A DNA stretch of 64,000 nt, from the NCBI GenBank assembly GCA_016193485.1, contig JACPRZ010000012.1, positions 33,109-97,108 of the forward strand. Reading direction: 5' to 3'. A program made the position numbers and the translations under genes. The notes under the pieces were generated by a model. It saw nothing but the letters and a program-made list of their open reading frames with translations. It was not told where the DNA came from and did no database searches. Every line of letters starts with the position of its first letter. The stretch's first letter is position 1. Below are positions 33,691-52,659 of this stretch, one piece after another. This DNA comes from Bacteroidota bacterium. GTDB taxonomy: Bacteria > Bacteroidota > Bacteroidia > JACPRZ01.

Positions 33691-33714
33691 TTTACCGTAA
33701 ATTTGCAATGTTCA

Positions 33715-33789
33715 GGGCAATTAGCTCAGTTGGTTCAGAGCACTGCTTTCACACGGCAGGGGTCGCAGGTTCAACTCCTGCATTGCCCA
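33715..33789 (+). tRNA. tRNA-Val (anticodon CAC)
   Basis: Cloverleaf by manual folding. Acceptor stem GGGCAAT/ATTGCCC, D-arm GCTC..GAGC, anticodon stem CTGCT/GGCAG with loop TTCACAC (U33, A37), T-arm GCAGG-TTCAACT-CCTGC, discriminator A. No encoded CCA. Confidence 0.8.
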
Positions 33790-33842
33790 CCTTTAAAAAA
33801 ATAAAAATCCCAAAATTTATAAATCCTCAATCTCCATTTTAT

Positions 33843-36023
33843 ATGAAAAACACATTCTATTTACCACTTATTCCGTTTATCTTATCGGGATTCTTTTGCA
33901 AAGCCCAGATATCAATAACAGGGATAAATGACACCGTAACCATTGACTTTACCGGGTTTACCGCAGCCGGGTTCGCTCCGGCACCTGCTGCAGGGCAACT
34001 CAGTTCAAATGACTGGGCTGTACGCGGATTTAGCCAGGATACCCTTCTTGATTTCGGTGAAACGGCAACTACCGGTGATTTTGCCCGCGGCATTTCAACC
34101 GGCAGTGTGAACACCGGTGGCATTTATGCTTTTGACGTTGGGGGGGGGAATGCAATTTTCGGTGTTCAGCCAACCGATAATGATTTCACACCTGGCAGTG
34201 TAACCCTGAAAATTCAGAACAATACGGGTGTACCTGTCACGGATTTTGAAATTGAATATGCAATATGGTGTTACAATGACCAGAACCGGTCAAACTCCCT
34301 CAACTTTTCGTGGTCATCGGATAACATTACGTACTCGCTGGTGCCGCCACTTAATTTTGCTACCCCTCAACCGCTTGACAGCCCCGCTTCGTGGGTTTCG
34401 ACTTATATGGCGACTCTCATCACCGGATTAAATCTTGCAAACGGTTCATATTTTTATCTGCGGTGGAGCGGCAATGATGCAGGCGGCTCCGGTTCAAGGG
34501 ATGAGTATGGGGTTGATAATATTAAGATTATTGCAGGGGCTCCTTTAGTCAACGCTGACTTCTCTGCAACAGATATTTGTATTGGAGATTTCGTTTATTT
34601 CACCGATAATTCCACAACTGTCACCGGTTCTATTATTTCATGGCAATGGTATTTCGGCAACGGTGACTCATCTTATCTTGCAAATCCTTTTTATTATTAT
34701 TCAACTTATGGTACTTATTATGTTACACTTATTGTAACTAATAATTCGGGCGATACGGACAGTGTAACAAAACCGGTAACGGTTTTCCCGGTACCTATTG
34801 CTGATTTCACCGCTGCAAATTTCTGCCAGGGTAGTCCGACTCAGTTTAACAACCTTTCCACTATCGCAAGCGGAACTATTGCCTTGTGGTCCTGGAATTT
34901 TGGCGACAGCACTTTTTCCACTACGTTGAATCCCTCGCATATTTATTCAGATACCGGGACTTTCACAGTCACCCTGACTGCAATTTCAGATAACGGATGT
35001 GCAGATTCCGTTTCATATTCCATAATTATCTACCCGGGACCAATTATAAATACTTCTGCGATGGTTATCCAGCACTCTGTGTGCAGCGGCAATAACGGTT
35101 CAATTTCAGGAATCACGGTATCCGGTACCGGACCTTTTTCTTATGAATGGGAGGACAGCAGCGGTAATGTTGCCGGAAATTCACTTGATATTGACAGTTT
35201 GAATCCGGGTATTTATTATCTTTCAGTAATGTCTTTATCATGTACATCGGGTGTTGTTACAGTCAATATCGGGGATTCCATTCCTGCACCTGCAGTGACC
35301 TTGACATCATCGGGTAATATCATCTGCGAAAACGACACAGTATTTTTTAATGCAGCGCCCGCGGGTTATGATAATTATGAATTTTTCCTGAACAGCAATT
35401 CGGTTCAATCCGGTGCAGGTAATTCATATTTCTCTTCTTCTCTTGCGGATGGGGATGAAATAGCAGTGGTATGTACTGACAACGGGTGTACTGCTCAGAG
35501 TTCACCGGTAGTTATTATGGTCAATCCGAATCCTGTTGCTGGTTTTACTTTTACAATTAGCGGTTCAACAGGCACTTTCACCAATACAACTTCAGGAGGA
35601 ACTCCCCCCCCGGTATATTCATGGGATTTCGGGGATGCTATGGGAACTTCCAATCTGTTCAACCCGGTTTATACCTATTCTTCAACCGGTTCGTATTTCG
35701 TTTGCCTGTCGGTGGATGACGGAGCAGGATGCTCCGGTATTTTCTGCGATACTGTGGATATTTCGGTCGGCATTAAAGAAAATGATTTTACGGATACCCG
35801 GTTCATTATTAAACCGGCAATGCAGGGGATTGTTATATTCTCACAAAAGGATAAAATAATCAAGGCCGAAGTAATAAACAGTGCAGGTATGAAAATTCAC
35901 ACTGCACAGGGAACTTCCGCCAATAACCTGTCCGTTCCGCTACCGGGTGCCGGTACCGGAATATATTATGTGAGGATATGGAGTCACGATGGCGAAATAA
36001 GAGCGCTGAAATTTATCCGGTGA
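33843..36023 (+). CDS. T9SS type A sorting-domain protein with PKD repeats
   Basis: ORF 33708 overlaps the tRNA. Real start at the internal MKNTFYLPLIPFILSGFFCKAQ. PKD-like repeats (WxFGDG..S.....H.Y...G.Y.V.L). C-terminal Por_Secre_tail (GIYYVRIWSHDGEIRALKFIR). Confidence 0.8.
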   Translation: MKNTFYLPLIPFILSGFFCKAQISITGINDTVTIDFTGFTAAGFAPAPAAGQLSSNDWAVRGFSQDTLLDFGETATTGDFARGISTGSVNTGGIYAFDVGGGNAIFGVQPTDNDFTPGSVTLKIQNNTGVPVTDFEIEYAIWCYNDQNRSNSLNFSWSSDNITYSLVPPLNFATPQPLDSPASWVSTYMATLITGLNLANGSYFYLRWSGNDAGGSGSRDEYGVDNIKIIAGAPLVNADFSATDICIGDFVYFTDNSTTVTGSIISWQWYFGNGDSSYLANPFYYYSTYGTYYVTLIVTNNSGDTDSVTKPVTVFPVPIADFTAANFCQGSPTQFNNLSTIASGTIALWSWNFGDSTFSTTLNPSHIYSDTGTFTVTLTAISDNGCADSVSYSIIIYPGPIINTSAMVIQHSVCSGNNGSISGITVSGTGPFSYEWEDSSGNVAGNSLDIDSLNPGIYYLSVMSLSCTSGVVTVNIGDSIPAPAVTLTSSGNIICENDTVFFNAAPAGYDNYEFFLNSNSVQSGAGNSYFSSSLADGDEIAVVCTDNGCTAQSSPVVIMVNPNPVAGFTFTISGSTGTFTNTTSGGTPPPVYSWDFGDAMGTSNLFNPVYTYSSTGSYFVCLSVDDGAGCSGIFCDTVDISVGIKENDFTDTRFIIKPAMQGIVIFSQKDKIIKAEVINSAGMKIHTAQGTSANNLSVPLPGAGTGIYYVRIWSHDGEIRALKFIR

Positions 36024-44353: not shown

Positions 44354-44785
44354 ATGGCGGATGTTCACGACAGGGAAACGAGAAGTTACAATATGAGCCA
44401 AATCAAAGGCAAAAATACAAAGCCGGAGATTTTGGTAAGAAAATTTCTTTTTGCAAGGGGATTCCGTTATAAATTGCATGATAAAAAACTTCCGGGTAAA
44501 CCGGACCTGGTTTTTCCAAAGCTTAAAACGGTATTATTCATTCATGGGTGTTTTTGGCACGGACATGAAAATTGTAAATACTTTATTATTCCAAAAACCA
44601 GAACTGACTGGTGGTTGAAGAAAATCCGGAGTAATAAACAACGAGATGTGGATAACTATTTAAAAATAAGTAAAGAAAAATGGAGGGTTTTAACTATCTT
44701 TGAATGCGAATTGAAAAGTGACAAACGTCAAACAACTCTCAATAGGATATTAAAACGTCTGAAAAGAATACATGAAGCAGTTTAA
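44354..44785 (+). CDS. vsr: Very-short-patch-repair endonuclease (T/G mismatch-specific)
   Basis: TKPEILVRKFLFARGFRY...LPGKPDLVFPKLKTVLFIHGCFWHGH...WRVLTIFECEL matches the Vsr family. Overlaps dcm by 14 nt. Confidence 0.85.
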   Translation: MADVHDRETRSYNMSQIKGKNTKPEILVRKFLFARGFRYKLHDKKLPGKPDLVFPKLKTVLFIHGCFWHGHENCKYFIIPKTRTDWWLKKIRSNKQRDVDNYLKISKEKWRVLTIFECELKSDKRQTTLNRILKRLKRIHEAV

Positions 44786-46010
44786 TTTTATTGACCTTTT
44801 TGCCGGTGCCGGGGGACTTTCCGAAGGGTTTATTCGTGCAGGTTTTAATCCAATAGCCCATGTTGAAATGAGCAAAGAAGCTTGCTGTACCTTACAAACA
44901 AGGCTGGCTTTTCATTATCTCAGGCAAAATAGAAAATCAGAAACCTATTTTTCTTATCTGAAAAATGAAATATCGAGAAATGGTCTTTGGAATACAATTC
45001 CAGATGAATTATTAAAGTCAGTAATTAATGAAGAAATATCTGACAAGAGTATGCAGAATATTTTTGACCGGATTGATGACCAACTTTATTCCAAAAAGGT
45101 TGATGTAATAATAGGTGGACCTCCTTGTCAGGCATATTCACTTGTTGGAAGAAGCCGTGACCCTGATAGAATGCAGGGAGATAAGAGAAATTATTTATTC
45201 AGGGACTATGCACAATTTCTGATTCGTTACAAGCCAAAGTATTTTGTCTTTGAAAACGTGTTGGGTTTACTTACCGCTGGAAATCAAAAATATCTCAATG
45301 AGATGATTCAGCTTTTTGAATCAATCGGCTATTCGGTTGGTACCCCTACTGTGTTAAATGCACAGGAATACGGGGTTCTTCAAAAAAGAAGAAGGGTAAT
45401 CATAATTGGAAAACGCGGAAAAAAGAAATTTGAATTTCCACATGTTAGTACAAAAGAGAACAAATGGCAAATAAAAAAGGACTTATTTTTTGATTTACCG
45501 AAATTAAACCCCGGAGATGAATTACCATTAACCAATTATACCAAACCAATAAACGAGTATTTGAAACTAACTGAAATCAGAAATGGAATAGATTTCATTA
45601 CTCAACATATCGCCAGGCAGCACAATGAGAGAGACATAGAAATATATTCTATTGCTATTGACAAATGGATTAATTATAAAACAAGATTAAAATATACCGA
45701 TATTCCGAAAAGGTTACAGACACATAAAAATACCAATGTATTTCTTGACAGGTTTAAAGTGATTGATCCTTTCGGCTGTTCGCATACAATGGTTGCTCAC
45801 ATCGCGAAAGATGGACATTACTACATTTATCCAGACCTTAATCAAGTCCGTTCAATATCAGTTCGTGAGGCAGCCAGAATTCAATCATTCCCTGATGATT
45901 ATTATTTTGAAGGAGGACGGACTGCTGCATTTAAACAAATTGGAAATGCGGTGCCACCGCTGATGGCAAGTGCTATTGCCAGAGGAATTAAGAAGCAGTT
46001 GACGAAATAG
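44772..46010 (+). CDS. dcm: DNA (cytosine-5)-methyltransferase
   Basis: Motif I FIDLFAGAGGLSEGF, motif IV GGPPCQAYS, motif VI FVFENV, motif X QIGNAVPP. Confidence 0.9.
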   Translation: MKQFNFIDLFAGAGGLSEGFIRAGFNPIAHVEMSKEACCTLQTRLAFHYLRQNRKSETYFSYLKNEISRNGLWNTIPDELLKSVINEEISDKSMQNIFDRIDDQLYSKKVDVIIGGPPCQAYSLVGRSRDPDRMQGDKRNYLFRDYAQFLIRYKPKYFVFENVLGLLTAGNQKYLNEMIQLFESIGYSVGTPTVLNAQEYGVLQKRRRVIIIGKRGKKKFEFPHVSTKENKWQIKKDLFFDLPKLNPGDELPLTNYTKPINEYLKLTEIRNGIDFITQHIARQHNERDIEIYSIAIDKWINYKTRLKYTDIPKRLQTHKNTNVFLDRFKVIDPFGCSHTMVAHIAKDGHYYIYPDLNQVRSISVREAARIQSFPDDYYFEGGRTAAFKQIGNAVPPLMASAIARGIKKQLTK

Positions 46011-46728
46011 AAATTTTTACTTGCTCTAAAACTTCTTTCAACTCAGCGACATCCAAAAATGGAAGATTGCGGACACCACCAACAAGATTTAATCCTTTGA
46101 AAATTTCTCTTGTTTTATCTTCATTGGAAGAAATTTCCGGATTATTTTTTAAAAATTCCAATAAGGCAATTCTGATATTTTTATTGCTACCAAAACCTCG
46201 TTCAACAATTCCGGTGCTCAAATCTGCTCTGCTCAATAAAATTTCTGTGAGTTCATGTGGATTATTCCTCTTCTCATCATAAGTAAGATGAGAAAACCAC
46301 CACAATCTTGAGATGCCATTTCGTGTTAATGATTCAATATTTATATTTCTCAGAAAATATCGGTCTTTTAATCTTCCTATTTCCTTTCCTTCAGATGCTT
46401 TTTCCATAGGCCACCTTGCCCTCATGTATTTCCAAAATGTAAAATGGGTGAGATAAGTCCAAAGGCGTTCATCTGATGCTTGTGTTTCGTTCAAAGTTTT
46501 CAATGCCTCATAAAGTATTTTACTATTTTCCAAATCACCTTTGTCAGCTTCAAGAATTAAATCATCACTAATAAAAATTCCGGTATTCCCTCTTGGAAAC
46601 TTTTCTTCATAAGGAAACCTGTCCAATTTGTAGTTATCAAAATTGTTAGTAGCAACTGTATCTCTGAAAAGTTTATCGATGTAACTTTGCTGAAAAACTT
46701 TTAACTCAATTTGATTTTTATTTTTCAT
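45988..46728 (-). CDS. Hypothetical protein, third gene of the GHKL-ATPase operon (candidate restriction/defence component)
   Basis: 246-aa ORF with no recognisable motif. Its start overlaps the upstream gene's stop by 1 nt. Its 3' end overlaps the dcm 3' end by 23 bp. AT-rich codon usage. Confidence 0.5.
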   Translation of the reverse strand: MKNKNQIELKVFQQSYIDKLFRDTVATNNFDNYKLDRFPYEEKFPRGNTGIFISDDLILEADKGDLENSKILYEALKTLNETQASDERLWTYLTHFTFWKYMRARWPMEKASEGKEIGRLKDRYFLRNINIESLTRNGISRLWWFSHLTYDEKRNNPHELTEILLSRADLSTGIVERGFGSNKNIRIALLEFLKNNPEISSNEDKTREIFKGLNLVGGVRNLPFLDVAELKEVLEQVKISISSTAS

Positions 46729-47546
46729 TATTCTTCCATTAATTGTTTAAGGGTATTGAATGACCGATTATTCGGGTGGTCTAATATTCTTTGCGCTCTT
46801 TCAATGTCTGTTCTGTCCTTTGATTTGTCTTTAATATCCGAAAGAACCTTATACCATCTTTTGTCTGCATAATCTTTTGCTTCATCTGATGAAATAAAAT
46901 GAAGCGCTTCGATCAACGCTGGCAGAACGATACTGCTTAAAAGTAAATTCACCCATATTCCTTTTTTTACAATCTGATAATTTTCATAATCTTCCTGACA
47001 AAGCATTATGGTTATTTTTTCACCTGAATATTCATTATACATCGGATGATTATTTTTTCCAGTAGTATCAATATTCATTAATGCAGAAATTGACTTTAAT
47101 TCTTCCGGTGATTTATTCGCGTAAAATCTTCCTTTGCCTGCATATGCAAGAATATCTCCCCTATCAACGGAAAATGAATAGCCGGAATAATCAGAATTGA
47201 AATCTTTGTTACTGTAACGGGTAATGTTTTCATTGGCACAAATGAAAAAATCAATTTCAACTTCACCGTTTAACTTATAGGAGTTGATTTTAATTGCATC
47301 AGTAATATTCTTTTCGGACTTGAAAACTTCTCTATACATTGTGCCTCTACAATATAGATGTGAAACAAGCATCGCTTGCTTTTTCTCAACCAAATTTTGC
47401 AACACATCATTTACTATTTTAAATGTCGGAGAAATTTCAATTTCTTTACCGGAAGAAGAAACCCGGAGTTCAATTTCTATTAAACCGCTAACATCATCTC
47501 CGATTCCCAAAACTGGGTGCGGATATAATCTGTTATTGTAAAGCAT
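46728..47546 (-). CDS. Hypothetical protein, second gene of the GHKL-ATPase operon
   Basis: 272-aa ORF. Its start overlaps the GHKL gene end by 14 nt (translational coupling). No recognisable motif by eye. Confidence 0.5.
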   Translation of the reverse strand: MLYNNRLYPHPVLGIGDDVSGLIEIELRVSSSGKEIEISPTFKIVNDVLQNLVEKKQAMLVSHLYCRGTMYREVFKSEKNITDAIKINSYKLNGEVEIDFFICANENITRYSNKDFNSDYSGYSFSVDRGDILAYAGKGRFYANKSPEELKSISALMNIDTTGKNNHPMYNEYSGEKITIMLCQEDYENYQIVKKGIWVNLLLSSIVLPALIEALHFISSDEAKDYADKRWYKVLSDIKDKSKDRTDIERAQRILDHPNNRSFNTLKQLMEE

Positions 47547-49362
47547 AAGCGTCTATTTTGAGTGAAAATTTTATTGGAGAATCAATCGTCACATTGAGTT
47601 TCATTTCTTTTCCTTCTTCCAGATTAATACTATGAATGTTATTGCCCGTGAAATGCGGAGTGTGACCGCCCGCACTAACTACTTTTGAGATTTTTAATTT
47701 TTCAGACCCTTCTTCACCGACAGCGGTAAGTTTTAAATTACACCTCTCGCTAATTTCTGCTTTGAGAATTATCATATATTCAAGTAAATTTTTTGTTCGC
47801 TTCATGAGAAATGACCTTGATTGAAATTCATCTTCATCAAATTTTCTTTTTGATTTTGTCCGCTTCTTTTTCTCTCTTCTTTTTCTTTCTCTTTCTCTTT
47901 CTTTTTTTCCTTCTATATTGGTTGTGTTCACAACAGTAACTTTGAAAGGACTTATGACAACGGGTTCTTCAAAAATTTCCTTCTTCTGAATTTTTTTTGA
48001 AGATTCTTCTTCTGCTTCTTCACCTGTATATTGGGAAACACCATCTCCCTCCCCCGTATTTTCGCCATCATCATAAGGCAAGTATTTATGGAGTTCGGGA
48101 ATATCAAGAACGCCTGATGATTTTGTGATTTTCATTTTATCAAGGCAATCCCTGATAAAAACAATTATTTCTTCCATTGCTTTCGCACCTTTTTCAGTAT
48201 TGCGTTCAGGAATCCATTTGTCATGAGCCGGTGGCTCCATTCTTCTCAATTCCTTATTCCCTTTGTCATCATCACAAATAAAAACTCCCGCATAATTTCC
48301 AGGGAAGGTGAATCTACGAGAATAAATCACCATATGTGACTTACGAATCATGGAAACATAATTCAGTTGCTCTTCTGTTTGGTAAAAATAAAATTTCACA
48401 TTGCCAAGCGTATGAAGTTTTCCTTCAAATGGTGTCCCGTTCTTAATAGCAAGGTAATATTGCAATGGATTTCCTGTTGGCTCTACATAAGCTTTGAATG
48501 GTTCTCCAAGAAAATGTTCAGTCAATAATTTTTCAAGGTTATCCTGATTGATTTGAATATTTTCAACTTTAACAATTAAGTCATTATTGCTGATAGCGTA
48601 CCAAAAATTACGAAGAATTGATTTTATCAGATTTTTTTGCCACCCTTTTTCATTCTTATAACTGGCAATGAAAATATCAGTTCCCGTTTCTTTTCGCCAA
48701 AAATTTTCAGGAATGTCTCTTGGATTTTGAAGTGAACCTTGTCCGATACCAAACGATCCGACACCTCTTTTTATATCTTTGTCAACTTCGTGGCTTACTA
48801 ATTCAGCAATGCCTTGAAATTTTGTAAATCCTTTTTCAGTTTTAGTAGAATAAAAAACTACCCTTAGGTTAGAAGCAGCAAAAGGAGCACCTTTACCGAT
48901 ACCGAACGAACCACCCTCACCCTGATCTTTTGAACTTGCTCCTGTTGATTTTACTAAATTATACCAACCACCTTTTTTATCATTATCAAGTCCCAATAAA
49001 CCTTTTGTATTGAAATCAGATATTCTTAAAAATGGAATAGTTTCACCCTTTATACATGCGAGAGCATCATCCATAAAATTTTGAGTATCTTTATCTGATT
49101 TGTAATATTTTTTGCAAGCATTCAAAACTTCAAGTAATTCACTTTGCCCTGGAAATTCTTTTCGTGTGAACTCCTCAAGTTTAAAGGTAACCAATACAGG
49201 ATCATCGCTTCCGTCCTTCTTCGCATCAAGAGAGTTTTGAATAATTTCTCTTGCAAGGTGGTAATTGTAATTTCCCGTAAAATGTTCAATCATTGAATTG
49301 TGAATACCGTCCTCTCGGCCTCCACCCGTAGTAACAAATTCCCATGTTGGTTCTTTTGTCAT
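47533..49362 (-). CDS. GHKL-superfamily ATPase (MORC/MutL-like HATPase_c_3-type) with Lys/Arg/Glu-rich C-terminal segment
   Basis: Bergerat N-box LAREIIQNSLDA (ExxxNxxDA), G1-like DFNTKGL, G2/G3 GGSFGIGKGAPF. Charged low-complexity stretch KKERERERKRREKKKRTKSKRK. First gene of a 3-gene operon. Confidence 0.7.
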   Translation of the reverse strand: MTKEPTWEFVTTGGGREDGIHNSMIEHFTGNYNYHLAREIIQNSLDAKKDGSDDPVLVTFKLEEFTRKEFPGQSELLEVLNACKKYYKSDKDTQNFMDDALACIKGETIPFLRISDFNTKGLLGLDNDKKGGWYNLVKSTGASSKDQGEGGSFGIGKGAPFAASNLRVVFYSTKTEKGFTKFQGIAELVSHEVDKDIKRGVGSFGIGQGSLQNPRDIPENFWRKETGTDIFIASYKNEKGWQKNLIKSILRNFWYAISNNDLIVKVENIQINQDNLEKLLTEHFLGEPFKAYVEPTGNPLQYYLAIKNGTPFEGKLHTLGNVKFYFYQTEEQLNYVSMIRKSHMVIYSRRFTFPGNYAGVFICDDDKGNKELRRMEPPAHDKWIPERNTEKGAKAMEEIIVFIRDCLDKMKITKSSGVLDIPELHKYLPYDDGENTGEGDGVSQYTGEEAEEESSKKIQKKEIFEEPVVISPFKVTVVNTTNIEGKKERERERKRREKKKRTKSKRKFDEDEFQSRSFLMKRTKNLLEYMIILKAEISERCNLKLTAVGEEGSEKLKISKVVSAGGHTPHFTGNNIHSINLEEGKEMKLNVTIDSPIKFSLKIDAYALQ

Positions 49363-49538
49363 AATATTAAAATTTGAATTTATATTTTACTGCACGCAAC
49401 ATCTCATTATCAATTGTATTTATATAAAAGGGAAATTTATATTCATCCAAGCGTTTTATATATTCCCGCAACAAGATTTAATAATTCGTGCTGATTTTGA
49501 ATTGTAATTGGTATTTTCATGGAAAATAATTTTTGGTT

Positions 49539-49943
49539 TCAAATCAACTCCACCTTAAACCCCTTCTCCGCTTCCAGATTTTTAAACTCACTGTCCCCGG
49601 TGATCAGCGTTGCTTTTTTCTTTATGGTTAATGCTACAGCGAAGGCATCGGCATAGGAAATCTTGTGCCGGGATTTGAGCTGCGCAGCAGCATAGGTTAA
49701 ATTAAAGTCCGCATCTACAATTTCTATCGGGAAATGCAATACGGAACTTAATGCCAGTTCTGCTTTTTCCGGACCTCTCTTTCTATAAGACATATAATAT
49801 ACTTCTCCCAAATTTACCACTGACATTGAGCCGTACTTCTCTCCATTGGAAATATCAGAGAGCAACTGCGATACTGTTTCGTGTCCCTTTTCTTTTTCCA
49901 GCAGGGCAATGATGGCAAAAGTGTCAAAGACAATATTTCTCAT
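49539..49943 (-). CDS. vapC: PIN-domain toxin (VapC-like) of a type II toxin-antitoxin pair
   Basis: 134 aa with N-terminal D (FDTFAIIAL) and the later acidic residues of the PIN fold. Overlaps the upstream antitoxin by 4 nt. Confidence 0.7.
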   Translation of the reverse strand: MRNIVFDTFAIIALLEKEKGHETVSQLLSDISNGEKYGSMSVVNLGEVYYMSYRKRGPEKAELALSSVLHFPIEIVDADFNLTYAAAQLKSRHKISYADAFAVALTIKKKATLITGDSEFKNLEAEKGFKVELI

Positions 49944-50170
49944 AATTCTCTTTCTATGGCTTTTTCTTTCATTAATTCTTCCAGGATGCTTCCTTCGCCT
50001 TTGAGTATTCCGGCAAACGATTCAAAATACTCCTTCGTCATGGCTTTCAGAATTATTTCACCGTTTTTTTCAATGATGGCGATTTTTGTCCCGGGTTTTA
50101 TGCCATATTTCCTTCGGATCCTCTTTGGAATTACAATCTGCCCTTTATTAGTTGTTATTGATGTTTCCAT
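49940..50170 (-). CDS. AbrB/MazE/SpoVT-family antitoxin (VapB-like)
   Basis: Start at the internal METSITTNKGQIVIPKRIRRKYGIKPGTKIAII (swapped-hairpin DNA-binding motif). 76 aa. Confidence 0.65.
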   Translation of the reverse strand: METSITTNKGQIVIPKRIRRKYGIKPGTKIAIIEKNGEIILKAMTKEYFESFAGILKGEGSILEELMKEKAIEREL

Positions 50171-50295
50171 ACGATAATATTTGGTAATACACATTAGGTT
50201 AATGGGTACAAAGATATATAATATTAACGAATTGACAATGGGTGTACGAAAATTATTTTTCTGCAATGAGTAATCATTATAAGCCGCCATAGTAT

Positions 50296-50400
50296 TAGGT
50301 TCCCGCAGATTTCGCTGATTTTCGCAAAAAAAAACCTATGTATCATAATTAAAATCAATAATAAAAAAATCTGCGTGTATCTGCGATATCAGCGGGAAAT
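50296..50400. repeat. ~105-bp intergenic element with terminal inverted repeats (ttcccgcagatttcgctgat ... atctgcgatatcagcgggaa); copy A
   Basis: Shares a 20-bp exact 5' word and a 3' word (aaatctgcgtNtatctgcg) with copy B at 53911. Lies in the divergent promoter region between the antitoxin gene and padR. Confidence 0.6.
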
Positions 50401-50529
50401 GTTATTACAGATTTGAAATCAGCCTTATTTTGTTAATAACTTGTTAATAACTTTTTAATATATGCAATACAAGGTACTAATTTAAATACTTATCTTTGCA
50501 GTGTCAATTACCTTATTAACGAATGTACT

Positions 50530-50874
50530 ATGGAACAAACAATAAACATTGAAAACACAAAAGCACAGATGAGAAAAGGGGTGCTGGAACTGTGCGCCCT
50601 TGCAGCGCTTACTGCCGGAGAAGCATACCCTTCCGATATAATTGAGAAATTGAAAAAATCAAAACTAATTGTCGTTGAAGGAACCATATACCCGATGTTA
50701 ACCCGGTTAAAAAATGCCGGGCTGCTTACCTACCGTTGGGAAGAATCCAGGCAAGGACCACCCCGAAAATATTACCGGTTAACTCCTATTGGGGAGAAAG
50801 TGCTGAAGGAACTTGAAGATTGCTGGGATGAACTTGCCGGTACTGTTGATACAATAAGGAAAAACAAAATTTAA
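50530..50874 (+). CDS. PadR-family transcriptional regulator
   Basis: Winged-helix motif YPSDIIEKL...GTIYPMLTRLKNAGLLTYRWEES...RKYYRLT. Confidence 0.85.
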   Translation: MEQTINIENTKAQMRKGVLELCALAALTAGEAYPSDIIEKLKKSKLIVVEGTIYPMLTRLKNAGLLTYRWEESRQGPPRKYYRLTPIGEKVLKELEDCWDELAGTVDTIRKNKI

Positions 50875-51034
50875 CTATCATCTAACCATCTAACCATCTA
50901 ACCATCTAACCATCTAACCATTTAACCATTTAACCATTTAACCATCTAACCATCTAACCATTTAACCATTTAACCATTTAACCATCTAACCATTTAACCA
51001 TTTAACCATTTAACCATCTAACCATTTAACCATC
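50873..51034. repeat. Tandem octanucleotide microsatellite (AACCATCT / AACCATTT) x ~20, ending 5 bp before the PspC-domain gene start codon
   Basis: Read directly from sequence: aaccatct x5, aaccattt x3, aaccatct x2, aaccattt x3, aaccatct, aaccattt x3, aaccatct, aaccattt, aaccatcc. Confidence 0.9.
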
Positions 51035-51039
51035 CAATT

Positions 51040-52659
51040 ATGAAAAAAACAGTATCAGCCAACATCAGCGGTATCATCTTTAATATGGATGAGGACGCGT
51101 ATGAAAAATTCCATAATTACCTCAGCGCAGTCCGGGGCCATTTCAGCGCTTCGGAAGGCAGGGATGAAATCATGGCAGACATAGAAGCACGCGTTGCCGA
51201 AATGTTCCAGCAGAGGGTAGGGGACCGCAAGCAGGTTGTAACCCTTAAAGATGTGGAAGAAGTTATCACCCAGATGGGTAAGCCGGAGGATTTTGCGGGT
51301 GATGGCGCTGGAGCAGGCGCTTCTGCAGAAGAGGCGGCAGCAGGAACCGGCTCCGGCCGTAAATACAGGCGTTTATATCGCGATTCGGATGACCGTGTTC
51401 TGGGGGGGGTATGTTCAGGAATCGCTCATTACTTCGGCTTTGATCCGTTATGGCTGCGGCTTGCCTTTGCCGTAGCATTATTTTTCTTCGGAACCGGTGT
51501 TCTCCTTTATATACTGCTTTGGATAATTGTTCCCCAGGCGCGCACGGCAGCCGAAAAACTTGAGATGAAAGGCGAGAAGGTGAACATCAGCAACATCAGC
51601 AAATCCATTGAAGAAGAGATGGACTATTTAAAAAAAAAGTTGAACGATTTAAAAGATGATGCAAAAAACATTAAAACAAAACCGATAGTTGACAAAGCGG
51701 AAAATATTTTTTCACGCTTCTTCAGTTTCCTTGGTGAACTTTTTACCGCACTGATGAAAGGGTTCCTCCGTTTCATTGGTTTTATTCTTCTTGCAATCGG
51801 TATCATTTTTCTTATCTGGATAATAATCGCTGCTGTCGGTGGCTATACCATCACTACCATTGCCGAAGGCGATTTCAGCGCCATACCCTTTCCGGGGATT
51901 TTAAATTACTTTTTTGACAGCCCGTTCCAGGTGACGCTGCTTAAAGGTGGGCTTTTGCTTCTTATCGGCATTCCTGTTTTCATGTTTATCTATGAAGGAA
52001 TAAAACTCCTTTTCCGCGTAAAAACAAAAACCCACATCATCGGCTTTACTGCATTTGCATTGTGGATTGCCGGCTGGATGATTTGCGCTATTGTTGCAGC
52101 CGGAATGGTAAAAGATTATTCGGTGAAGTCAGTTGTAAAAAAGGAAATCCCCTTACTGCAGCCGGCCGGTTCAACCATTTACCTGTCAGTAAAAAATGAC
52201 GGACTGGGCGGTGATGAGGATGAAGACACGAACCAGATAAGTATCAAAATAAATAATCACCGTTTGTTGTACCGTAATGATGGGAAAGTGTATCTCGGGT
52301 ATGTTCAGTTGGATGTTCAGAAGAGTGAGAACGACAGTTTTAAACTTGTGATACGAAAAATTTCCCGCGGTGAAACCAGAAAAGAAGCGCAGCAGAGGGC
52401 TGATGAAGTACAATATAATTTCAGCCAGAGCGATTCGGCAATCACCTTTTCACCCTATTTTACCATTGGCGAAAAAAGCAAGTGGCGTGCGCAGCAGTTG
52501 AAACTTACGCTGAAAGTGCCTCCGGGAAAATCAATCTACCTGGATGGCTCAATGGAAGAAATCATTTATGACATTGAAAATGTTACAAATACCGTTGACG
52601 AGGAAATGCCCGGGAAAAAGTGGATCATGACGGAAAAGGGATTGGAGAGTGAGGAGTAA
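51040..52659 (+). CDS. PspC-domain membrane protein
   Basis: PspC domain (RLYRDSDDRVLGGVCSGIAHYFGFDPLWLRLAFAV) followed by TM helices and a long C-terminal region. PadR–PspC gene pairing is common. Confidence 0.8.
   Translation: MKKTVSANISGIIFNMDEDAYEKFHNYLSAVRGHFSASEGRDEIMADIEARVAEMFQQRVGDRKQVVTLKDVEEVITQMGKPEDFAGDGAGAGASAEEAAAGTGSGRKYRRLYRDSDDRVLGGVCSGIAHYFGFDPLWLRLAFAVALFFFGTGVLLYILLWIIVPQARTAAEKLEMKGEKVNISNISKSIEEEMDYLKKKLNDLKDDAKNIKTKPIVDKAENIFSRFFSFLGELFTALMKGFLRFIGFILLAIGIIFLIWIIIAAVGGYTITTIAEGDFSAIPFPGILNYFFDSPFQVTLLKGGLLLLIGIPVFMFIYEGIKLLFRVKTKTHIIGFTAFALWIAGWMICAIVAAGMVKDYSVKSVVKKEIPLLQPAGSTIYLSVKNDGLGGDEDEDTNQISIKINNHRLLYRNDGKVYLGYVQLDVQKSENDSFKLVIRKISRGETRKEAQQRADEVQYNFSQSDSAITFSPYFTIGEKSKWRAQQLKLTLKVPPGKSIYLDGSMEEIIYDIENVTNTVDEEMPGKKWIMTEKGLESEE

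Follow-up and report, generated by a model that had tools for sequence, protein, structure and literature searches.

In a 64-kb stretch of Bacteroidota DNA (64,000 nucleotides, henceforth termed the window), a tandem array of octanucleotides separates padR, the gene for a PadR-family regulator, from pspC, the gene for a PspC-domain membrane protein. As a slippage-prone tandem repeat beside an envelope-related gene, the array recalls classical phase-variable contingency loci. Its position raises the question of whether the copy number of the unit switches or tunes the downstream gene, or whether the array is a product of replication slippage that the operon tolerates.

The core of the array consists of 19 successive, in-register 8-mers, 18 of which read exactly AACCAT[C/T]T, with AACCATCC as the final one (Table 1). 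It is preceded by the degenerate copy AACTATCATCT, which begins with the last two letters, AA, of the padR stop codon TAA (50872–50874), and it ends 4 nt before the ATG of pspC at 51040. Along the core, the two unit variants alternate as CCCC TTT CC TTT C TTT C T C'; the order proposed in the initial annotation (5C, 3T, 2C, 3T, 1C, 3T, 1C, 1T, 1C) is the same if the degenerate first copy is taken as a C unit. TRF describes the array with a period of 8 (50879–51034, 19.5 copies, 94% matches, score 242, no indels) and with a higher-order period of 32 (4.8 copies, 95% matches, score 275). To describe the array as a perfect 8-bp repeat is thus a slight overstatement: the longest tract of exact 8-periodicity is no more than 43 bp, that of exact 32-periodicity no more than 87 bp, and TRF finds 94% matches. 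Likewise, the stated distance of 5 bp to the pspC start is correct for an array end at 51034 and becomes 4 nt with the end at 51035. Such higher-order structure suggests that slippage or unequal exchange has taken place repeatedly.

Table 1. Features of the padR–pspC locus, in window coordinates.
Feature	Position	Strand	Remarks
Tandem TTGTTAATAAC, 2.8 copies (two exact 11-mers), 5' of the padR promoter	50430–50460	+	Candidate PadR operator
Bacteroidota-type -7 box TATCTTTG (TAnnTTTG), 32 nt 5' of the padR ATG	50491–50498	+	Kept in L223
padR, PadR-family winged-helix regulator, 114 aa	50530–50874	+	ORF; PF03551, 65 bits, E=5e-18
Degenerate left edge of the array, AACTATCATCT	50873–50883	+	Overlaps the padR stop codon
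Core array, 19 octamers AACCAT[C/T]T (last AACCATCC), 32-bp higher-order period	50884–51035	+	
AATT linker between array and pspC	51036–51039	+	A at -3 and -4 of the pspC start
pspC, HAAS-PspC-LiaI/LiaF-TM-Toastrack protein	51040–52659	+	Four Pfam domains

The complete padR–pspC spacer measures 165 nt and contains no G (A 61, C 51, T 53); on the mRNA strand, the 152-nt core is 0% G and 31.6% C. All six frames of the array are interrupted by 6–8 stop codons each, on both strands, and the array lies between two confirmed ORFs. Sequence, TRF and the Pfam assignments of the flanking genes therefore bear out what the initial annotation had proposed in this respect: the array is a genuine, non-coding octanucleotide tandem repeat that fits precisely into the gap from padR to the PspC-domain gene. 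The remaining tandem arrays of the window all have TRF scores of 72 or less, and single copies of the octamer occur six times elsewhere in the window, against about four estimated by chance. Insertion of a mobile element was ruled out, as the array is purely tandem and has neither terminal inverted repeats nor a target duplication.

Since arrays of 160 bp are badly handled by short-read assemblers, we considered whether the assembler had created the array or, failing that, its number of copies and the order of its variants. Logan assemblies of the runs SRR12113421 and SRR12113429 encode PadR and PspC proteins identical to those of the window, and their contigs break inside the array: they stop 34 nt past the padR stop codon (about 3 units) or start 36 nt before the pspC ATG (about 4 units). 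Against an artefact, the left edge is reproduced exactly in two of these contigs (L001 and L002) and the right edge is identical in a third (L003), so that the array exists in independent data; moreover, the aperiodic C/T pattern makes long k-mers unique. An assembly artefact is thus very improbable. The existence of the array is secure, and its exact copy number alone is uncertain. A metagenome pattern scan, PspC and PadR homologue searches, and exact-protein look-ups found no further same-species contigs with the array.

The two flanking genes form a known type of signalling unit. The padR product corresponds to NCBI entry MBI2966709.1, whose annotated start lies four codons further downstream, and the pspC product to MBI2966710.1, annotated as "PspC domain-containing protein", with Pfam matches to HAAS (28.6 bits), PspC (91 bits), LiaI-LiaF-TM_PspC (73 bits), and Toast-rack (105 bits). 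HAAS-PadR dyads with PspC/Toastrack architecture have been described (PMC11237479), and by its Pfam matches and synteny the locus is one of them. We compared 80 genome loci from Bacteroidota metagenome-assembled genomes (MAGs) for padR–pspC synteny; in 79 of them, padR lies directly 5' of pspC in the same orientation. From stop to start, the two genes of these relatives are separated by a median of 24 nt, with overlaps in ten pairs and gaps above 150 nt in only five. Subtracting 18 units from the 165-nt gap of the window leaves 21 nt, the norm of the family.

This compact arrangement, with a short median gap and occasional overlaps, argues against a separate promoter for pspC. Nearby, a single Bacteroidota-type -7 box, TATCTTTG, is present, which lies 5' of padR, and no further TAnnTTTG box occurs on the + strand from the padR start to pspC. 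The spacer itself yielded no terminator-like or sigma-70-like promoter sites and no match to an Rfam family, the only Rfam match in the whole window being a tRNA. With no -7 box, terminator or sigma-70-like site between the padR start and pspC, co-transcription of the two genes is the natural inference, and TATCTTTG is probably the single promoter of the operon. The promoter region also contains a putative regulatory motif, GTTAATAA, three of whose six sites in the 64 kb fall within 90 bp around the padR -7 box (50432–50520). Two direct copies lie inside the TTGTTAATAAC tandem and one inverted copy (50513–50520) between the -7 box and the ATG. The cluster is a candidate autoregulatory operator of PadR, a proposal drawn from motif distribution. 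GTTAATAA does not occur within the array. Given the location of both the sole nearby -7 box and the GTTAATAA motifs, the proposal that the array occupies the site of a PadR-responsive promoter is not supported.

Several features of the neighborhood lie outside the operon. A defense-type island directly 5' of padR (44772–50290) comprises a C5 cytosine methyltransferase (44772–46010; best PADLOC match DrmMII/MTase_II), a complete three-gene PDC-M33 candidate defense system on the minus strand (45988–49362; A 2.6e-142, B 2.3e-63, C 1.4e-55), and a PIN/MazE-type toxin-antitoxin pair, also on the minus strand (49539–50290). The region from the start of the toxin-antitoxin operon to the padR promoter also holds an imperfect 27-nt inverted repeat, TTCCCGCAGATTTCGCTGATTTTCGCA/TGCGTGTATCTGCGATATCAGCGGGAA (50300–50398), with 78% complementarity and an AT-rich loop of 45 nt; it may represent a small repeat element or an antitoxin operator. 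Further upstream, the tRNA gene at 33715–33789 (Rfam 68 bits) overlaps the 5' end of a 771-aa ORF (33708–36023), and the real start of this ORF, if it is a gene, must therefore lie further downstream.

To place the array in time, the most informative sequence is a 620-bp contig of GCA_040960315.1 (L223), found via the 90% PadR cluster. Its padR is 86.8% identical to that of the window at the nucleotide and 99% at the amino acid level, which makes it the sole close relative found: PspC and PadR homologues between about 76% and 99% identity were absent apart from L223, and the next PspC homologues beyond those of the same species are only 48% identical. The promoter region is conserved in L223: both the -7 box and the tandem copies of TTGTTAATAAC are kept, and the inverted GTTAATAA copy is altered. 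The conserved stretch ends just upstream of about position 50425, where the divergence between the two sequences suggests the boundary of the defense island. In pspC, the first 45 nt differ from the window by a single base. Between these conserved flanks, the L223 spacer comprises 72 non-repetitive nucleotides and contains no AACCATYT unit. The absence of the array from L223 indicates that it arose after the lineages split and that the operon does not require it; by this comparison, the array appears recent and lineage-specific, in an operon that would work without it. With zero copies in the closest related lineage, the locus does change over evolutionary time.

The two lineages also differ in the C-terminal tail of PadR (…RKNKI* in the window and …RKSNMATE* in L223; window 50872–50874, L223 480–503), and the window lacks about 50 nt that L223 has. 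Together, these differences indicate that the 3' end of padR and the spacer evolve by insertions and deletions, far faster than the rest of the gene. The left edge of the array shares 21 of 27 positions with the distal L223 spacer (score 24, against 18.6 +/- 3.4 for shuffled sequences), a similarity that is not significant alone. An origin in situ from the native leader is plausible. In the nearest PspC clade (L218–L222, 47–48% identity), padR–pspC spacers are unusually long, at 76–137 nt, and carry short direct repeats; the spacer of L222 holds a hairpin, CACGAATT/AATTCGTG, and in that of L221 a 20-nt sequence, TAATCAGTGTAATCTTT, is duplicated exactly, immediately ahead of the ATG. Long PadR homologues were also considered as products of read-through into repeats and rejected, their extra length stemming from N-terminal start calls or non-repetitive C-terminal tails.

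Bacteroidota initiate translation without Shine-Dalgarno (SD) pairing, in a manner tuned by low structure and upstream adenines, with an A at -3 as a positive determinant (PMC6847099). The padR–pspC spacers of 66 relatives contain 48% A and 12% G overall, with G falling to 5.7% in the last 20 nt, and 56 of the 66 have an A at -3 of the pspC start, a composition that fits SD-independent initiation (PMC6847099). SD-like motifs occur in the spacers of only 3 of the 66 relatives, and an SD sequence is impossible in the window spacer because it contains no G. The suggestion that the array takes the place of the ribosome-binding site is therefore not supported. RNA over the array is predicted to be unstructured, with a minimum free energy of -0.3 kcal/mol across 211 nt. 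Since the units are all alike, internal changes in copy number leave the last ca. 40 nt before the ATG unchanged, which speaks against the idea that such changes shift promoter or ribosome-binding-site spacing.

These properties set the array apart from phase-variable loci. In contingency loci, the simple-sequence repeat lies within an ORF or between promoter hexamers; the array of the window is in neither position, being intercistronic with no promoter found in or after it, and so cannot switch a gene. As it lies outside reading frame and promoter, a gain or loss of units can shift neither the frame nor the -33/-7 spacing. On this evidence, it would not work as an on/off switch, and the classical mechanisms of phase variation are not applicable to it.

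A graded effect is a separate matter. Slippage may vary the length of the intercistronic leader and thereby heritably tune the ratio of the PadR repressor to its membrane-bound HAAS-PspC partner, in the manner of an expression rheostat. We regard this as possible yet unlikely. It would accord with the length and higher-order structure of the array, a sign of repeated length changes, and with its location directly 5' of a start codon in a two-protein dyad in which stoichiometry should matter (PMC11237479). A precedent is Moraxella catarrhalis uspA2, whose 5' untranslated region (UTR) carries AGAT tetranucleotide repeats with strain-dependent, measured copy number and an expression that peaks at a particular copy number (Attia & Hansen 2006, as cited in PMC4679880). 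The uspA2 repeat resembles the array in lying in a transcribed leader directly 5' of the start and in that any effect would be graded and not on/off; in contrast to it, the array has a unit of 8 nt, lies between two cistrons, and belongs to an organism that makes no use of SD sequences. Against tuning by length, the constant last ca. 40 nt and the lack of structure at any length leave no strong-effect mechanism visible, the sister lineage L223 functions without the array, and the C/T interruptions, which cut perfect 8-bp periodicity to 43 bp, should damp slippage. Hypermutability and an influence on expression, both put forward in the initial annotation, are plausible, the mutability as a reading of the repeat structure.

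Tandem repeats in the spacers of distant lineages also bear on this question, because differing units recur at the same place. In L077, AAAGGAT is repeated 6.6 times from the padR stop codon on (2386–2431), and the spacers of other relatives carry units of the TAATAGG type (L018), AACAACT (L009), AAAGATAA (L056), or ACNGAAG (L219). Significant periodicity of 5–12 nt was detected in 10 of 34 padR–pspC spacers of at least 30 nt, compared to 8 of 97 other intergenic regions in the same loci (about 3.5-fold); on a custom periodicity score, the window spacer reaches 126, against at most 32 in the 34 spacers of the relatives. Counted by region, tandem repeats around the operon of the relatives came to 6/60, 5/65, and 5/53, versus 3/107. 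Both enrichments are suggestive, and that of periodicity in the spacers could mean selection instead of mere tolerance; they are confounded, since operon-internal spacers of about 20 nt grow long mainly by duplication, and such ascertainment can explain it, which weakens the case for tuning. A bolder reading of the same pattern holds that the padR–pspC spacer is a recurrent hot spot for lineage-specific arrays (AACCATYT, AAAGGAT, TAATAGG, AACAACT, AAAGATAA, ACNGAAG), the length of which acts as a heritable dial that uncouples translation of the sensor from that of its PadR partner and sets their ratio. We consider this a long shot.

In the loci of the relatives, arrays with 7–8-nt units and at least ten copies occur about once per 150 kb; one array in a 64-kb window is thus unremarkable for the group. 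Further arrays flank the operon closely, 5' of padR and 3' of pspC, and striking ones adjacent to padR–pspC in relatives include GATACTG repeated 14.6 times upstream of padR (L050 1777–1878), ACACTAA repeated 12 times with 100% matches downstream of pspC (L079 4660–4743), two ATTAGCTG octamer arrays in inverted orientation 110 bp apart (L012 4264–4313 and 4425–4470), and a 17-mer repeated 10.5 times (L056 4057–4237). Tandem arrays of 7–8-nt units seem to be common in these uncultured Bacteroidota.

Heptamer direct repeats of TAACTGA that precede start codons in Beggiatoaceae, Cyanobacteria, and some Bacteroidetes (MacGregor 2015, PMC4679880) have been proposed to bind S1, a cold-shock protein or a similar protein, and an analogous proposal for the array would make it a set of binding sites for such an RNA-binding protein or for a DNA-binding one, such as PadR itself. 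Like many TAACTGA sets, the array is forward-oriented, abuts a start codon at a few nucleotides, overlaps the upstream stop codon, has stops in all frames, and lacks both predicted RNA structure and an SD sequence (PMC4679880). In addition, long arrays in Bacteroidetes are absent from the closest relatives, whose spacers are shorter, as is the case here (PMC4679880), and single-stranded RNA rich in pyrimidines and A would suit S1. The differences concern the unit, AACCAT[C/T]T, which has another sequence and 8 nt, and its frequency, as TAACTGA forms a genome-wide set (PMC4679880) while the window contains one array in 64 kb and single octamers near chance level.

Metagenomic data point the same way. 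At least 120 contigs, with GC contents of 0.22–0.66, contain three or more copies of AACCATYT, up to 24 units; among the matches listed, none has PadR or PspC on the contig, none has the array inside an ORF, and none matches the flanks of the window. Unlike TAACTGA, the unit shows no orientation bias relative to neighboring genes (45 forward versus 47 reverse leader positions) and no strand preference after stop codons (46 versus 49 by orientation), again among the matches listed. In viral contigs, it is not above permuted controls, with five matches against one, five, and three for three composition-matched permuted units. A sequence-specific repeat family was rejected on these two grounds, orientation and permuted controls. 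The octamer is therefore a generic slippage-prone word and not a dedicated motif family like TAACTGA (PMC4679880). AACCATYT arrays of 24, 23, and 16 units (L105 600–791, L184 4597–4780, L208 3921–4048) lie on unrelated metagenome contigs and a 260-kb IMG/VR contig, and many matches sit at contig ends, a sign that such arrays routinely break assemblies. Binding of PadR was rejected separately: the GTTAATAA sites, its candidate operator, group around the padR promoter, and the array has none of them; moreover, a G-free strand forms only A/T palindromes, which are unsuited to a dimeric winged-helix–turn–helix (wHTH) protein. All in all, we give a protein-binding role very little credence.

The composition of the array invites one further mechanism. 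Rho utilization (rut) sites are generically untranslated, unstructured, C-rich, and G-poor stretches of RNA. The array, whose 152-nt core is free of G and 31.6% C, which is closed to translation by stops in every frame and for which no structure is predicted, might thus serve as a rut-like loading site that lowers transcription of pspC relative to padR, its length setting the strength of the polarity. Against this, the spacers of the relatives are A-rich and not C-rich, several repeat units in them contain more G than C (AAAGGAT, TAATAGG), and the sister lineage L223 has no array. Strong polarity on the sensor half of a signaling dyad also seems counter-productive. Rho-dependent polarity is hence quite improbable, though a C-rich, G-free, untranslated stretch of 165 nt is not necessarily inert.

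On balance, the array is probably a recent, slippage-generated long simple-sequence repeat, tolerated within the operon because the leader stays G-free and unstructured. It would have grown by replication slippage and unequal exchange in the short spacer of the conserved padR–pspC operon, and transcription starting at the padR promoter would carry it into a bicistronic mRNA. In this transcript, the 165-nt spacer, G-free, unstructured, and closed by stops in all frames, may act as a passive element: ribosomes would be released after padR and initiate pspC afresh on an open leader of the kind that the SD-independent ribosomes of Bacteroidota prefer, and translational coupling of the two genes is likely lost. 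The last units and the AATT linker would supply the start-site context, with A at -3 and -4, which stays constant under internal changes in copy number. Tolerance would be favored by the composition of the array, which matches the G-poor leaders usual for operons of this family. Slippage probably makes the copy number drift, which would alter the distance to padR only and have, at most, a small graded effect. Slippage origin and near-neutrality are what we infer for the array from these comparisons.

Long simple-sequence repeats with units of 5–11 nt are known from prokaryotic genomes (Mrazek et al. 2007, as summarised in PMC4679880), and the array adds a case to them, resembling the start-proximal heptamer arrays noted in Bacteroidetes. 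Like the repeats in that summary, it consists of head-to-tail copies of a short unit, exceeds the length expected by chance, and is non-coding, as its unit is not a multiple of 3; the repeats summarised there are, as here, attributed to polymerase slippage and distributed sporadically across phylogeny. According to the same summary, heptamers are the commonest class and the repeats lie in ordinary intergenic regions, whereas the unit of the window has 8 nt and its array sits inside an operon, between functionally coupled genes.

If the array is merely tolerated, it accounts for the breaks between padR and pspC in short-read assemblies of this organism, and it would mean that operon spacers of Bacteroidota with SD-independent initiation can grow harmlessly while they remain G-poor and unstructured. 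If, instead, copy number tunes the ratio of PadR to HAAS-PspC, the locus would be a rare instance of graded, heritable control of a stress-signaling pair by an intercistronic repeat, and would make the HAAS-PadR system, as yet uncharacterised, easily accessible to experiment. Should spacer length prove to be a heritable dial across lineages, it would provide evolvable gain control of an envelope-stress dyad in organisms without SD-based tuning.
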